From NCBI GenBank assembly GCA_951406725.2, contig OX597820.1:65286001-65350000 (forward strand): DNA of 64,000 nt, written 5' to 3'. The translations under genes were made by a program, and so were the position numbers. The notes beneath the pieces were generated by a model, which worked only from the letters and a program-made list of their open reading frames with translations, was not told the origin of the DNA and ran no database searches. Origin of the DNA: Octopus vulgaris (Eukaryota). How positions within the stretch are numbered: the stretch's first letter is position 1; each line of letters opens with the position of its first letter. Shown here piece after piece: positions 5,330-58,775 of this stretch.

Positions 5330-5376
5330 GCATGTATGTATGTATGTATGTATGTATGTATGTATGTATGTATGTA

Positions 5377-5576
5377 TATGAAGAAAAAATAGTCAAGATA
5401 GAAAATGCTGAAATAATTTTATAAAATACATTTCAGTACCGGTTTCAGTCATTGAGACTTTTTCAACTGTAAGTATGGAAAACAATTAAATTTTGGAAAA
5501 ATTAAAAATAAAAAGCTTTTTTAAAAAACTATTTGCAGGGTGTTCAAATACATGTGGCATTTTCTTTGTTACTGCC

Positions 5577-5652
<76 letters not shown>

Positions 5653-5994
5653 AGAAGTGGCATTTTACTTGTTTCTGCCTGTTTAATCTCTTTTGTTTAT
5701 TCTTGTGGGTTAGATCTGGAAACCACAAGAGTAAACAAGAGAGAGAGAGAGAAACAGGCAAAAACAAGGAAAATGCCACTTGTATTTGAACACTATACAA
5801 ATATTATTTTGAAAAAAACAACTTTTCTTTTAATTTTTCCAAAATTTAATTGTTTTCCATACTTACATTTGCAAAAATCTCAATCACTGAAACCGGTACT
5901 GAAATGTATTTTATAAAATTATTTTAGCATTTTCTATCTTGACTTTTTCCTTATATATCAACTCGTGTGTTCCTTTTCAACCTTCTACATATTG
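5377..5994. mobile_element. Fold-back non-autonomous PLE (Neptune-related) remnant with an HHR in each arm
   Basis: Imperfect inverted arms around AGATCT (~5712-5717). HHR at 5434-5469 (-): CAG-TTGAAAA-AGTC tcaat GACT-GAAA-CCGG-TA-CTG. A degenerate copy lies at ~5866-5901 (+). Right-only extension at 5958-5994. Flanked by (TATG)n and (TA)n. Confidence 0.75.
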
Positions 5995-6010
5995 TATATA
6001 TATATATATA

Positions 6011-6180
6011 TCAACAATTGAGGGTAAAATTAATTAATCAATTTCACCAAGTGTTCAGTATGTAAAAGGACCATTTAAGGCGAATTCAAAATATTACATT
6101 ATATAATTAGGGCTTAGTAAAATAAATTACTCTACTAAGTTCAGTATGTGGCAAAGTAATTTATTTTACTAAGCCCTAAT

Positions 6181-6188
<8 letters not shown>
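6011..6188. repeat. Small fold-back element in (TA)n with a perfect 34-bp inverted repeat
   Basis: 6098-6131 is the exact reverse complement of 6155-6188. Homologous to 58433-58775. Confidence 0.8.
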
Positions 6189-12487: not shown

Positions 12488-12678
12488 CAGTTCTATATTT
12501 AACAAATGTGGAATTATGTACATTATTTACATTATTTACATTCCACGGATATTTGCCTCTCATCTTGATGGTTGTTATCACAACATTTCGGCTGATATAC
12601 CCTCCAGCCTTCTTCAGGTGTCTTGGGGAAATTTCGAATCTGGATTCTCATTCCTAAGGATTTTTTTCGATGTTATAA

Positions 12679-12739
<61 letters not shown>

Positions 12740-13067
12740 GTCGTTGTTATTGTTCAGGTCACTGCTTGGAATCGGACTTAGAATCTTGTGGTTAATAACG
12801 CGCGTTGTTAACTACTACGCCCACGGGTATATGGCGTAGTGGTTACGTGCGTGGACTACTAACCCCAAAATTCCGAGTTCGATACCAGGCAGTGACCTGA
12901 ACAATAATAATACTAATAACATCGAAAATACCCTAGGAATGAGGACCCACGTTCGAAATTTCCCCAAGACACCTGATGAAGGCTGGAGTGTATATCAGCC
13001 GAAACGTTTTGTTAACAACAGACAAGATGAGGACAAATATCCGTCGAATGTAAATAATGTAAATAAT
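12488..13067. mobile_element. Head-to-head fold-back of a tRNA-headed, hammerhead-containing SINE
   Basis: Right arm 12819-13067: A box TGGCGTAGTGG, B box GAGTTCGATACC, (AAT)n, HHR at 12969-13012, (AATGTAAAT)n. Left arm 12522-12821 is its reverse complement, with HHR at 12578-12621 (-). Left-only extension at 12488-12521. Confidence 0.85.
12969..13012 (+). ncRNA. Minimal type-I hammerhead ribozyme
   Basis: ACAC-CTGATGA-a-GGCTG gagtgtatat CAGCC-GAAA-CG-TT-TTGT. The left-arm copy reads CTGAAGA..GAAA-TG-TT-GTG. Confidence 0.75.
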
Positions 13068-28306: not shown

Positions 28307-28547
28307 TACATATATATATATATATATAACAATAATAAATCTCTGAGCGAGGTATAAACAGTAACTGCTCTGTAATATAAGCGGGATCAGCCATCTGAAT
28401 GTGGCTAGGGACAGGGCGAGGTTGTGGGGGTGTTACTAATGAATTTAGCCTCAGGCGACTATAGACGACACCAGAAGAGCCGACACCATCACGGTGTCCT
28501 TGCTAGCCTGCAAAGGGAGATCAGCCTCCCCGAAGATACGGATGCTA

Positions 28548-28590
28548 CACACGGACCGGTTTCGAGGTAGTCGCCTCTCGTCAGCGCATG
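28548..28590 (-). ncRNA. Canonical type-I hammerhead ribozyme, monomer 1
   Basis: CAUGCG-CUGACGA-GAGG cgacua CCUC-GAAA-CCGG-UC|CGUGUG. All core nucleotides are canonical, with a GUC cleavage triplet. Confidence 0.9.
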
Positions 28591-28907
28591 GCAAGCACCG
28601 TTCTCCGTTGAGGGACTTCCTCTACAGGCTAGATATATATAGATTTTCACAGTAAACACAGTCACTGGCGTAGAAAATCTGTTCGATAACAATAATAAAT
28701 CTCTGAGCGAGGTATAAACAGTAACTGCTTTGTAATATAAGCGGGATCAGCCATCTGAATGTGGCTAGGGACAGGGCGGGGTTGTGGGGGTGTTACTGAT
28801 GCATTTAGCCCCAGGCGACTATAGGCGTCACCAGAAGAGCCGACACCATCACGGTGTCCTTGCTAGCCTGCAAAGGGAGATCAGCCTCTCTGAAGATACG
28901 GATGCTT

Positions 28908-28950
28908 CACACGGACCGGTTTCGAGGTAGTCGCCTCTAGTCAGCGCATG
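28908..28950 (-). ncRNA. Hammerhead, monomer 2 (G8U core mutation)
   Basis: Core reads CUGACUA. Confidence 0.75.
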
Positions 28951-29267
28951 GCAAGCACCGTTCTCCGTTGAGGGACCTCCTCTACAGGCTAGATATATAT
29001 AGATTTTCACAGTAAACACAGTCACTGGCGTAGAAAATCTGTTCGATAACAATAATAAATCTCTGAGCGAGGTATAAACAGTAACTGCTTTGTAATATAA
29101 GCGGGATCAGCCATCTGAATGTGGCTAGGGACAGGGCGGGGTTGTGGGGGTGTTACTGATGCATTTAGCCCCAGGCGACTATAGGCGTCACCAGAAGAGC
29201 CGACACCATCACGGTGTCCTTGCTAGCCTGCAAAGGGAGATCAGCCTCCCCGAAGATACGGATGCTA

Positions 29268-29310
29268 CACACGGACCAGTTTCGAGGTAGTCGCCTCTCG
29301 TCAGCGCATG
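29268..29310 (-). ncRNA. Hammerhead, monomer 3 (stem III palindrome changed to CUGG)
   Basis: CUGACGA..GAAA-CUGG-UC. Confidence 0.8.
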
Positions 29311-29627
29311 GCAAGCACCGTTCTCCGTTGAGGGACTTCCTCTACAGGCTAGATATATATAGATTTTCACAGTAAACACAGTCACTGGCGTAGAAAATCT
29401 GTTCGATAACAATAATAAATCTCTGAGCGAGGTATAAACAGTAACTGCTCTGTAATATAAGCGGAATCAGCCATCTGAATGTGGCTAGGGACAGGGCGGG
29501 GTTGTGGGGGTGTTACTGATGCATTTAGCCCCAGGCGACTATAGACGTCACCAGAAGAGCCGACACCATCACGGTGTCCTTGCTAGCCTGCAAAGGGAGA
29601 TCAGCCTCCCCGAAGATACGGATGCTA

Positions 29628-29670
29628 CACACGGACCGGTTTCGAGGTAGTCGCCTCTCGTCAGCGCATG
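29628..29670 (-). ncRNA. Canonical hammerhead, monomer 4
   Basis: Identical to the monomer 1 motif. Confidence 0.9.
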
Positions 29671-29835
29671 GCAAGCACTGTTCTCCGTTGAGGGACTTCC
29701 TCTTTGCAGGCTAGCAAGGACACCGTGATGGTGTCGGCTCTTCTGGTGACGTCTATAGTCGCCTGGGGCTAAATGCATCAGTAACACCCCCACAACCCCG
29801 CCCTGTCCCTAGCCACATTCAGATGGCTGATCCCG

Positions 29836-29881
<46 letters not shown>

Positions 29882-53167: not shown

Positions 53168-53953
53168 ATATATACATATATATGTATATAGTAAGGAAAA
53201 ATTTTTTAAAAATGCAGAATGCTCAAATGAAAGAAAATTTTAATAAAATGAGAAAATGATAAAATATATAAATATATATTTATTCAACCGGTTTTCGTCA
53301 TTGTATGACTTGTCAAGAATATTTATGTTTTAAGAAGTTTTTTTAAAAATTAGAAAGGGGAAAAAAAGAAAATTGCATTGTTTTTTGTAAAAGAATAATG
53401 ATAAAAATGTACAAAAATTGAAAAATAAGTTCTCCGATACATTGTGAGTTCGTTGTGTATCTTGAGTTTTATGGTTGTTTACCAAAAAATTACCTTGAGG
53501 TGTTAAGATCCAAAGGGATTAAGAGCATGTGATGTGTTGTGTTGTTAAATTCAGCATGTTGCAGGACAGGAAGTAGTAGTAATTGTGGTCCTGGTTCTTC
53601 AGTTCCTGTGTTGTGAGTAAGGGGAGACAACTCTTTTGAGTTCTTCAATAAAACCCAAATTATAAAACTATCATTTTAGCTTCATTTGCATTATCTTTTT
53701 TACATAATTGCTTGTTAACTTAACTTTCAGATTTTAACACTTTATTTATATTATTTTCTAATAATATAAATCTGCATAGACAATTGCATTTCAAATTGTC
53801 ATATCATTTATAATAAAAATGATAGTAATAACAACAATAGTAAAAATGATATTTAAAGAATATAAGTTTTAGCTTGAAGTGATGAATGCATGGTATCTTT
53901 ATATATTTGTGTTAGTCCATCCATGAAGAGTGAGGTAGAGAAAGGAAGTTTGA

Positions 53954-55243
53954 TCAACGAGGAGTTTGCATATTAAGTTGTGTTTGGAATTTTTCAATAA
54001 AGAGATTCTCCTTGTTAATTCTCTCTTGTGTGGTGATCCCGTCTTTACATTGGTAGAAGGGGAATATATAGAATTTGGGGTTTAAGTCTTTAGCACATGA
54101 GTCTAAGTGGTCACTCAGTGGAATTTGTCGGTATTCCGGGAGATTTATTTGTTCTTTATGCACCGTTACTCGTTTACGTAACGGGAGACTCGTTTGTCCA
54201 ACATAATTATGTTGGCAACCAGCGCATGTGAGAACGTAGATAAGGTTCTCGGAGGAACAGGAGAAGTTAGTCTTGATTTTAAACTTCGTACCTTGTTTGA
54301 AGGTAAATTCAGAGCCTTCAAGTAGAAAGGGGCAGGTACCACAGTTTGAGCGTGCACATTTTTTTACTGTTGGGGGTGGATGTGGTGTGTGAAGTTTGGC
54401 ATTTGTCAAGAGTTTTTTTAAAGATTTGTGTTGCCTTTTGCATTTGAGGATTTTGTGTGTATTTATAATGTTTTTCATTTTTGGGTCTGTTGACAGTAGA
54501 CTGAGGTTTTGTATGATTGTGGTGTATGCTTCGATATTTTTGGGGTTGTGGGTGGAAATGTATGGAAGTATTTTGAGGTTGTGTGTGGTGTTAGGTTGGG
54601 TGGTTTTCAGTGTAGTGTTGTCTAGTTCTTTGGCGCGTTTTATTCCATACTCTATAAGGGTGGAGGGATATTGACGTTGTAATAGTGTTTTTTTGAGGTC
54701 TTGAAGGCGTATTTCTCGTGTTTTTGGATCCGAGACAATGGTGCATACCCTTTTAGCTAAATTGAAAGGGATATTTGTCTTGGTGTGTTTTGGGTGGCAT
54801 GAACTAAAGAGGAGGTATTGTTGTGAGTCTGTAGGTTTGTGGTAGATGTCTGTTATGATTTGGTTCTTAGGTGTTTTTATAATTAGGAGGAATGGGAGAT
54901 GATGTTTGCTTAATTCCATAGTGAATTGGATGTTGGGATGTATGTTGTTTAGTATGGTTTTGAATTCCAGGAGTTTTTCATAAGGTTCTTTCCATATGAT
55001 GAAACAATCATCTAAATACCTTTTCCAGTTTTCCATTAGGTAGGTGTGGAAAACATGTCCAACTTTCTGGCTTGATATTTCATAGAGTGACAGTTCGAAG
55101 TAACCCATTATGAGGTTCGCAAGGACTGGTGCAGCCTTGGTACCCATCGCAATGCCACATTTTTGACGGTAGTGTGTGTCGTCGAAGAGAAAAAAATTGT
55201 TTGTCAGAATGAACTTAAGAGATTCTGTAATAAAAGACTTGTT
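53954..55243 (-). pseudogene. Inverted partial copy of the same PLE ORF (C-terminal RT + GIY-YIG)
   Basis: Protein identical to the + copy except a 6-nt deletion (LPFLLII vs LPFLDLLII) and CTIVS vs CTNVS. Confidence 0.9.
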
Positions 55244-57232
55244 CTCCCCTTTACCCCAAGCAAAACCAAGGTAAAATCCAATTTCAGTAAGGAAGAATGG
55301 GAAAACCTACGTGACATACAACTGGATAAAAACCTCACCATCAAAGAAGCGGACAAAGGGAGTGCTGTGGTCCTTATGGACACGGAATTTTATAAACACC
55401 TAGTTTTCTCCATGCTTAACAATAACATTTTCTATGAGGTTATTAACAACTACAAACAGCAAAAAACAATCAGAAACCTCACCACACTCATACGCCAACA
55501 CAGTCAGGGACTCACAGAAAAAGAAAGGGATTATATCACCATTTTCAAATGCAAGCCCAGCCTTTTTTATGGCCTTCCTAAAATCCATAAAAACAAATAC
55601 ATCACCGAAGCCTGCAAACTCTCCACTGACATCCACATCAACATCAAAGCACCGGAGGACCTAAAACTAAGGCCCATCGTGGCTGGGACCTCCTGTGAAA
55701 CACACCGCCTGAGTAACTTCCTAGACATCCTTTTGAAACCTTTCCTTACCCACATCAAAAGTTTCATTAGGGATGATCTGGACATGCTCAAACACCTCCC
55801 GAAAACAGTTAACGAGGAGGCACTCCTGGTATCCTTTGATGTCATCAACCTCTACACCAACATTCCACATGAGTATGGTATAGAGGCAATTGACTTCTGG
55901 CTAGAAAAACACCCAGAGACATTCCCTGACCGCATTAACAAGTCTTTTATTACAGAATCTCTTAAGTTCATTCTGACAAACAATTTTTTTCTCTTCGACG
56001 ACACACACTACCGTCAAAAATGTGGCATTGCGATGGGTACCAAGGCTGCACCAGTCCTTGCGAACCTCATAATGGGTTACTTCGAACTGTCACTCTATGA
56101 AATATCAAGCCAGAAAGTTGGACATGTTTTCCACACCTACCTAATGGAAAACTGGAAAAGGTATTTAGATGATTGTTTCATCATATGGAAAGAACCTTAT
56201 GAAAAACTCCTGGAATTCAAAACCATACTAAACAACATACATCCCAACATCCAATTCACTATGGAATTAAGCAAACATCATCTCCCATTCCTTGATCTCC
56301 TAATTATAAAAACACCTAAGAACCAAATCATAACAGACATCTACCACAAACCTACAGACTCACAACAATACCTCCTCTTTAGTTCATGCCACCCAAAACA
56401 CACCAAGACAAATATCCCTTTCAATTTAGCTAAAAGGGTATGCACCAATGTCTCGGATCCAAAAACACGAGAAATACGCCTTCAAGACCTCAAAAAAACA
56501 CTATTACAACGTCAATATCCCTCCACCCTTATAGAGTATGGAATAAAACGCGCCAAAGAACTAGACAACACTACACTGAAAACCACCCAACCTAACACCA
56601 CACACAACCTCAAAATACTTCCATACATTTCCACCCACAACCCCAAAAATATCGAAGCATACACCACAATCATACAAAACCTCAGTCTACTGTCAACAGA
56701 CCCAAAAATGAAAAACATTATAAATACACACAAAATCCTCAAATGCAAAAGGCAACACAAATCTTTAAAAAAACTCTTGACAAATGCCAAACTTCACACA
56801 CCACATCCACCCCCAACAGTAAAAAAATGTGCACGCTCAAACTGTGGTACCTGCCCCTTTCTACTTGAAGGCTCTGAATTTACCTTCAAACAAGGTACGA
56901 AGTTTAAAATCAAGACTAACTTCTCCTGTTCCTCCGAGAACCTTATCTACGTTCTCACATGCGCTGGTTGCCAACATAATTATGTTGGACAAACGAGTCT
57001 CCCGTTACGTAAACGAGTAACGGTGCATAAAGAACAAATAAATCTCCCGGAATACCGACAAATTCCACTGAGTGACCACTTAGACTCATGTGCTAAAGAC
57101 TTAAACCCCAAATTCTATATATTCCCCTTCTACCAATGTAAAGACGGGATCACCACACAAGAGAGAATTAACAAGGAGAATCTCTTTATTGAAAAATTCC
57201 AAACACAACTTAATATGCAAACTCCTCGTTGA
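55244..57232 (+). CDS. PLE reverse transcriptase + Cys linker + GIY-YIG endonuclease (5'-truncated, uninterrupted frame)
   Basis: RT motifs KEADKG, FYGLPKIHK, LRPIV, SFDVINLYTNI, GIAMGT..APVLANL, RYLDD, LPFLD and YHKPT. Linker CARSNCGTC is Neptune-like. Endonuclease: LIYVLTCAGCQHNYVGQT..R..H..E..LN. Confidence 0.92.
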   Translation, partial: LPFTPSKTKVKSNFSKEEWENLRDIQLDKNLTIKEADKGSAVVLMDTEFYKHLVFSMLNNNIFYEVINNYKQQKTIRNLTTLIRQHSQGLTEKERDYITIFKCKPSLFYGLPKIHKNKYITEACKLSTDIHINIKAPEDLKLRPIVAGTSCETHRLSNFLDILLKPFLTHIKSFIRDDLDMLKHLPKTVNEEALLVSFDVINLYTNIPHEYGIEAIDFWLEKHPETFPDRINKSFITESLKFILTNNFFLFDDTHYRQKCGIAMGTKAAPVLANLIMGYFELSLYEISSQKVGHVFHTYLMENWKRYLDDCFIIWKEPYEKLLEFKTILNNIHPNIQFTMELSKHHLPFLDLLIIKTPKNQIITDIYHKPTDSQQYLLFSSCHPKHTKTNIPFNLAKRVCTNVSDPKTREIRLQDLKKTLLQRQYPSTLIEYGIKRAKELDNTTLKTTQPNTTHNLKILPYISTHNPKNIEAYTTIIQNLSLLSTDPKMKNIINTHKILKCKRQHKSLKKLLTNAKLHTPHPPPTVKKCARSNCGTCPFLLEGSEFTFKQGTKFKIKTNFSCSSENLIYVLTCAGCQHNYVGQTSLPLRKRVTVHKEQINLPEYRQIPLSDHLDSCAKDLNPKFYIFPFYQCKDGITTQERINKENLFIEKFQTQLNMQTPR

Positions 57233-57864
57233 TCAAACTTCCTTTCTCTACCTCACTCTTCATGGATGGACTAACACAAATATATAAAGATACCATGCAT
57301 TCATCACTTCAAGCTAAAACTTATATTCTTTAAATATCATTTTTACTATTGTTGTTATTACTATCATTTTTATTATAAATGATATGACAATTTGAAATGC
57401 AATTGTCTATGCAGATTTATATTATTAGAAAATAATATAAATAAAGTGTTAAAATCTGAAAGTTAAGTTAACAAGCAATTATGTAAAAAAGATAATGCAA
57501 ATGAAGCTAAAATGATAGTTTTATAATTTGGGTTTTATTGAAGAACTCAAAAGAGTTGTCTCCCCTTACTCACAACACAGGAACTGAAGAACCAGGACCA
57601 CAATTACTACTACTTCCTGTCCTGCAACATGCTGAATTTAACAACACAACACATCACATGCTCTTAATCCCTTTGGATCTTAACACCTCAAGGTAATTTT
57701 TTGGTAAACAACCATAAAACTCAAGATACACAACGAACTCACAATGTATCGGAGAACTTATTTTTCAATTTTTGTACATTTTTATCATTATTCTTTTACA
57801 AAAAACAATGCAATTTTCTTTTTTTCCCCTTTCTAATTTTTAAAAAAACTTCTTAAAACATAAA

Positions 57865-57905
57865 TATTCTTGACAAGTCATACAATGACGAAAACCGGTT
57901 GAATA
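57865..57905 (+). ncRNA. Variant minimal hammerhead (U3-A8) in the PLE 3' region; mirror copy at 53281-53321 (-)
   Basis: TATTC-TTGACAA-GTCA tacaa TGAC-GAAA-ACCGGTT-GAATA. Confidence 0.7.
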
Positions 57906-58042
57906 AATATATATTTATATATTTTATCATTTTCTCATTTTATTAAAATTTTCTTTCATTTGAGCATTCTGCATTTTTAAAAAAATTTTTCCTTACTTAT
58001 CATTTCTCCACGTGCGGTCAACACAACCCCACCATTTATTGA

Positions 58043-58398: not shown

Positions 58399-58430
58399 TA
58401 TGTATGTATATATATATATATATAATTTAT
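58045..58430. repeat. (TA)n-rich microsatellite flanking the PLE
   Basis: Directly visible. Its counterpart lies at ~53040-53190. Confidence 0.95.
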
Positions 58431-58432
58431 AT

Positions 58433-58775
58433 AAGTAACGATAAGATAGTTAATTTAAAATAAAATAACGAACTTATCAGGTGGTCAGCATGGAAAAAAT
58501 AACCTTCAAAGGTAATAATTATTGAAATTATAAATTAGGGTGTCTACGAGATACCACCATGCTGAAAATAGCAGCCATGAACCGACTTTAAAATCACCGA
58601 CAGTTTTCTTATAGCAACATGGAGAAGATGAAACTAGTAATTTTTTACTAGTGTCATCTTGTCTCCTTGTCTTTTCTCCATGTTGCTATATGAAAACTTA
58701 AGGTGATTTTAAAGACGGTTCATGGCTGCTATTTTCAGCATGGTGGTATCTCGTAGATACCCTAATTTATAATTT
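58433..58775. repeat. Fold-back element with ~100-bp arms and a nested central hairpin
   Basis: Arms at 58525-58626 and 58674-58775; centre ACTAGTAA tttt TTACTAGT; left-only extension at 58433-58524. Confidence 0.8.

Follow-up and report, generated by a model that had tools for sequence, protein, structure and literature searches.

Two fold-back loci in a 64,000-nucleotide stretch of Octopus vulgaris DNA (the window) carry a conserved, covarying structured RNA element inside a known type of mobile unit, and this element is apparently undescribed. Judged by sequence, short non-coding elements of the retrozyme type, with a hammerhead motif, have inserted at both loci as head-to-head, 5'-truncated copies, and a Penelope-like enzyme likely mobilized them. 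The fold, which lies downstream of the hammerhead, is probably an RNA element that binds such an enzyme and determines the two internal positions where copying begins. No description of the motif was found in the full-text literature searched, whose coverage stops short of subscription journals and of Repbase and Dfam entries.

The fold is ~140 nt in size. Helix P1 encloses hairpins P2 and P3, and a further hairpin, P4, lies just 3' of P1. Insertion arms end at two sites: K, about 10-25 nt after P2, and E, between a few and some 20 nt past P4, both distances being taken from alignment ends and blurred by TA microhomology. Both loci are asymmetric fold-backs at microsatellites, locus 1 with TA runs on both sides and locus 2 with a TA array on the left and a short AT/GT tract on the right. 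At locus 1 the motif is split across the two arms. The composite sense reading that the earlier note had pieced together there does exist, being unbroken in other genomic copies (e.g. L049), which belong to a young 560-bp tandem element, family A. Locus 2 has the motif contiguous on the minus strand and belongs to a second family, B; the two compensatory changes reported in the outer helix between the loci are present. What had been described as a three-helix junction has four helices: P1, P2 and P3 indeed covary or fold, and P4 had been overlooked. The parts of the two loci are as follows.

6012..6131, minus strand: long arm of family A (L031), 5'-truncated within P2; ends at site E just past P4, abutting the TA run
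6131..6188, plus strand: short inverted arm of family A; ends at site K just past P2, abutting the TA run
6140..6149, plus strand: 5' strand of P1, locus 1, from sequence and covariation
6150..6175, plus strand: P2 hairpin, locus 1, from folding of single copies
6176..6188, plus strand: A/U-rich linker, locus 1; contains arm end K, the putative first reverse transcription start
6071..6080, minus strand: P3, small hairpin, locus 1, from folding
6054..6063, minus strand: 3' strand of P1, locus 1, from covariation
6023..6048, minus strand: P4 hairpin, locus 1, missed in the first reading; arm end E lies ~12 nt further 3'
about 58424..58641, minus strand: long arm of family B, locus 2, with the entire motif contiguous
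58557-58564 with 58486-58493, minus strand: P1 of locus 2, within the family B long arm
58539-58555, minus strand: P2 of locus 2, within the same arm
58503-58512, minus strand: P3 of locus 2, within the same arm
58440-58478, minus strand: P4 of locus 2, within the same arm
about 58636..58775, plus strand: short inverted arm of family B (L001), locus 2; ends at site K after P2

Directly left of locus 1, at 5375-5957, another inverted repeat surrounds a (TC)n run.

Covariation was assessed on a MAFFT alignment of 13 copies, built from sequence only and not fitted to structure, in which two families are represented twice. When every pair of columns was scanned, the top stems were P1 and P4, and RNAalifold recovers the same two helices. 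Paired cells make up 91.8% of 220, and 14 of 17 pairs show double-sided changes. None of 500 shuffles reached the observed covariation, a control that ignores kinship between families, and slid controls pair at 31-51%. The covariation first noticed between two loci is thus strong in the larger alignment. Compared with 200 shuffles, 7 of 10 copies have a better fold than all of them (z -3.5 to -5.6), and the remaining three, including the locus 2 copy of the window, reach z of only -1.4 to -1.8. As MAFFT misaligns P2, this hairpin was left out of the covariation counts and of the covariance model and rests on per-copy folding: with each copy folded singly, it directly follows P1 in 12 of the 13 training copies. 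Its closing pairs are GG/CC, or GA/UC, AG/CU or others in divergent copies; the loops of P3 have 3-4 nt. In most copies P2 and P4 are each trailed by CU and an A/U-rich run. The linker after P2, previously described as conserved, keeps CU at its start and stays rich in A/U, whereas its sequence is only loosely kept across families. An A/U-rich hairpin over site K in several families was not counted; its register shifts between families and it is missing from the family E centroid. In a tally over the RNAalifold columns, G-U pairs outnumber A-C mismatches by 9 to 1 on the sense strand in the core of P1 and the base of P4. This bias favors a sense-strand RNA and thereby disfavors a single-stranded DNA structure, which the earlier note had offered as an option.

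The fold is common to at least 13 families in the 2.8-Gb genome, namely A-H and single copies with different helices. Between families the units can be aligned only at the motif, with the exception of B with D. Family A (locus 1) is very young, with a 560-bp tandem period and most scored copies 100% identical (40 scored among 881 first-look candidates). Family B (locus 2) is older, at about 90% identity, with 1563 candidates. Families C-H came to light when loci and genome stretches were searched with profiles and the same genome was then searched at the DNA level. With a covariance model of P1 and P4, a scan of 1.0 Mb yielded 13 matches at E<0.05, and another 0.4 Mb yielded six more. These 19 matches in 1.4 Mb scale to roughly 38,000 copies, a rough figure since 10 of the 140 scanned stretches lie next to the window and supplied three of the training copies. 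Locus 2 itself scores 72.7 bits against the model, which includes another family B copy. A search by spacing pattern returned 18 matches, chiefly variants of A and B. Tandem copies were seen in families A, B, F and H, and units are about 440-560 bp long. Assembled contigs of four presumed-RNA runs cover the family A unit and are mute on strand, ends and level; in contigs from four runs under four species labels, the two commonest family A variants beside P1 would, if linked, turn a U-A pair into C-G.

The motif was earlier thought to occupy the place that a hammerhead takes in other elements. It instead accompanies one: in six families (A, B, C, E, F and H), the same units contain a three-stem type I hammerhead core 80-150 nt upstream of the motif. 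A three-stem hammerhead was called within 330 nt upstream in 28/51 copies of A, 7/37 of B, 2/16 of C, 1/10 of E, 4/10 of F and 7/19 of H, against 6/2000 random windows, with at least one B and one C call belonging to adjacent elements. No calls were made in families D (0/15) and G (0/7). The window copies lost their hammerhead through 5' truncation, and the 5' ends of family A copies show no pile-up at the hammerhead cut. The motif itself is no hammerhead, as had been stated: it contains no hammerhead core and matches no Rfam model. Rfam searches over the whole A unit and six family loci recognized neither the hammerheads nor the new fold. Over the window, nothing relevant was found among the best 150 of 258 rows, all of them sub-threshold and mostly microsatellite miRNA models. 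Nor did the covariance model of any other self-cleaving ribozyme class in Rfam 15 match (for the window, again among the best 150 of 258 rows).

The units thus resemble retrozymes, with a type I hammerhead motif in six of eight families and short non-coding head-to-tail repeats. No PLE (Penelope-like element) protein match lies within them. Non-LTR retrozymes are likewise non-coding, low in GC, arranged head to tail and equipped with a type I hammerhead motif (PMC7229834; bioRxiv 10.64898/2026.07.22.740005). They measure roughly 300-390 bp, so the units here, at about 440-560 bp, are longer, and no second conserved structure is described for retrozymes in the available text of these two sources. 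The likeness lies in sequence and unit layout; self-cleavage and circular RNA are further traits that define non-LTR retrozymes. Three further observations concern hammerheads. A 360-bp tandem repeat at 28326-29842 of the window (3.8 copies) has a minus-strand hammerhead core and an inverted end; it is a separate retrozyme-like family without a covariance-model match. Hammerhead-bearing fold-backs in (TTA)n runs lie at 12522-13067 and 42487, and their ends match a Poseidon-like family (L083). The 3' ends of Naiad_Obim and Naiad_Ovul (PMC8557442 supplement, as available) show the two halves of a hammerhead core in swapped order around GC-rich stems, an arrangement that by eye may be a permuted hammerhead.

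The ends of the insertions point to the role of the fold. The end of the short arm falls at K in each of the eight families examined, as had been noted for the linker of the two loci, and long arms end just beyond P4. Among 20 family A fold-backs (hand count, overlapping loci merged), 18 pair K with E, none pairs E with E and two end elsewhere. As the search guaranteed one E-containing arm, K+K pairs are under-sampled; 0 E+E against 18 K+E has a probability near 0.0007 if ends are independent with equal odds. Family B has three fold-backs whose inverted arm runs past E. The 5' ends of paired arms differ in 15 of 17 cases, neither arm containing the other. Such independent 5' truncation without nesting fits two cDNAs. 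Over 3229 nt, K and E arms of the same locus differ at 47 positions and arms of different loci at about 100. This agrees with a single source transcript or locus, although gene conversion within the palindrome could contribute. Since both insertion ends adjoin two of its hairpins, the fold likely directs the start of a borrowed reverse transcriptase (RT). Of the functions proposed earlier, an RT-recognition element is the best reading, given that the arm ends adjoin P2 and P4.

Helentron and DINE-like DNA transposons have sub-terminal inverted repeats and a 3' hairpin. The fold is similar to this layout in that a short inverted pair precedes a hairpin close to the 3' end, with P1 as the sub-terminal repeats and P4 as the hairpin. 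We consider such an origin highly improbable: the 5' strand of P1 does not lie at the element end, family A copies lack a fixed 5' end, and random 5' truncation, an inverted second arm, a one-sided tail, the hammerhead motif and (TA)n targeting are all Penelope-like traits. By the description of PLE insertions in PMC8557442, as far as its available text goes, the loci show 5' truncation, an inverted adjacent copy, a one-sided tail (85-110 bp here) and a microsatellite target.

The fold might also be a new self-cleaving ribozyme, as the earlier note had suggested, whose cut would supply an RNA 3' end for target priming. It is a multi-helix junction of ribozyme size without an Rfam match, and arms end there recurrently. 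We regard this as very unlikely, as the unit already has a hammerhead motif, two end sites are used rather than one, and the ends scatter by several bases. Moreover, arms from tandem copies read through both K and E before ending, and invariant unpaired positions are few.

The proposal that the fold positions an RT has a parallel in the anole Penelope-like protein of Frangieh et al. 2024 (PMC11167929), which cuts and extends both strands in vitro and is predicted to be a dimer. According to the text available, this protein begins copying at two positions within the RNA, both downstream of the hammerhead, and the stretch that separates them makes up the genomic tail. By analogy, K and E would be internal RT starts of this kind, with P2 and P4 positioning them. 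The enzyme, probably a dimer, would make a cut in each strand of a (TA)n target. A single source RNA would then be primed at K by one of the cut ends and at E by the other, and the two cDNAs would join head to head via short homology. The one-sided tail would then equal the K-to-E distance. PAc of Anolis has in common with the loci here that two sites follow the hammerhead and delimit a one-sided tail, that the target is AT-rich and that a 5'-truncated copy lies inverted (PMC11167929). Its tail is 30-40 bp, compared with 85-110 bp here, and its start sites lie in an AC-rich stem-loop inside the ORF, as opposed to a covarying four-helix fold, a distinction drawn from the text description. The elements here are non-coding, and their genomic fold-backs pair K with E, unlike PAc. 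The two starts of the anole protein show no strand preference in that account (PMC11167929), whereas the pairing of K with E here is strict, which implies coupling of the ends.

Two other readings bear on the same ends. In one, which we find rather unlikely, the helices act in DNA, and a GIY-YIG endonuclease recognizes hairpins or TA-like sites in the cDNA and trims at K to produce the short arm. Craig et al. 2021 (PMC8557442), in the part available, attribute the tail to resolution by the endonuclease; both K and E resemble the target in A/T richness, and an inverted repeat can pair in either strand. The G-U bias, however, points to sense RNA, arms with independent 5' ends and no nesting fit two cDNAs better than one trimmed hairpin, and the tail maps to RT starts in vitro (PMC11167929). 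In the other, which is unlikely, the fold serves the RNA outside reverse transcription, by stabilizing a circular retrozyme RNA or by promoting its circularization, export or packaging, and the nearby ends arise from A/U-TA annealing. The A/U richness of both ends would allow priming through short homology, and metazoan non-LTR retrozymes do form structured circular RNAs (PMC7229834). Yet other A/U-rich stretches exist in the units, while the ends cluster similarly after P2 and P4 across diverged families, and family E keeps its K end at the same distance despite a different linker sequence. We therefore favor positioning of the RT starts by the fold.

An autonomous partner that could supply the enzyme did not emerge. 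No motif-bearing autonomous element was found in 20 Neptune-like and 20 Poseidon-like loci, one chimera excepted, and the motif occurs in none of eight GIY-YIG loci examined (of 150 listed) and in none of 88 PLE loci from other organisms. Six short motif strings found no partner in the consensus files of Craig et al. (PMC8557442), as far as available. The motif is also missing from the RT-GIY-YIG element of the window and from the L110-type Neptune-like family; the chimera L110 aside, no RT plus GIY-YIG ORF was found in the same element as the motif. In this chimera (L110:474-1690), a decayed PLE RT fragment runs in sense into family C sequence, with the junction about 10 nt beyond the hammerhead cut of that family; it is a weak hint at template switching. 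The link to a retroelement ORF is accordingly partial: no intact retroelement ORF was found together with the motif, and a PLE ORF fragment adjoins directly, in sense, in only one of 223 upstream segments (that of L110). The autonomous elements seen have tails of about 40-50 bp and lack such a fold.

The element at 53197-57989 of the window is a young RT plus GIY-YIG Penelope-like element without the motif (ORF 55091-57232, plus strand), which we take to be Neptune-like by its linker motif. Its inverted arm is perfect over 2 kb, a variant hammerhead core lies near 57875, and its tail, present on one side, measures about 46-50 bp; homologues of its RT include mollusc proteins. A very young GIY-YIG family (L411, G000:C16:20838700-20840200), with many open frames of 781 aa, a TA target and CCAAT-like boxes repeated in its 3' region, is a candidate mobilizer. 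A likeness to the 3' end of Naiad_Omin, seen by eye, was dropped as the closing strand of P1 is missing; Hydra-1_Obim ends about 50 nt after its hammerhead and is therefore too short for the motif. In two foreign Neptune-like elements (L263:57-200 and L295:839-980), the stretch from hammerhead to start codon shows, by eye, an enclosing helix around a small hairpin; this helix differs by a change between the two and is a possible analogue of the fold.

The RTs of PLEs and telomerases are close relatives, and the fold resembles the ciliate-type telomerase RNA core (PMC4993307; cited beside it, PMC11206666 and PMC10886601) in its size of about 140 nt and, in the portions available, in part order: an enclosing helix, an adjacent hairpin, a single-stranded priming region, a small stem and a distal hairpin. 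The likeness is one of helix layout, and no similarity in sequence was seen. Telomerase RNA has a pseudoknot and a short template that is recopied up to a boundary, whereas the fold here shows no sign of a pseudoknot, has no repeat template, and arms copy through P2 into the remainder of the unit; a putative second start follows the distal hairpin here, unlike in telomerase RNA. A reading that we hold unlikely, though not negligibly so, is that the fold is a telomerase-RNA-like docking module kept by parasites of Penelope-like RTs, in which two equivalent hairpin-plus-template units load the halves of a dimer onto the two ends of a DNA break.

In the reading preferred here, in which the fold sets the two starts of a Penelope-like enzyme, it bears on how such enzymes pick their RNA and two internal starts, a question on which the literature found offers in vitro work for a single protein. 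The natural compensatory variants of at least 13 families, together with strict end-pairing, provide defined mutations and a defined read-out. Retrozymes would also be tied to Penelope-like enzymes by mechanism, beyond co-occurrence. If the docking-module reading were true, the fold would be a living model for the RNA ancestral to the telomerase RNA core and a compact signal for two-ended insertion; if the likeness exceeds topology, it would bear on the origin of telomerase RNA.
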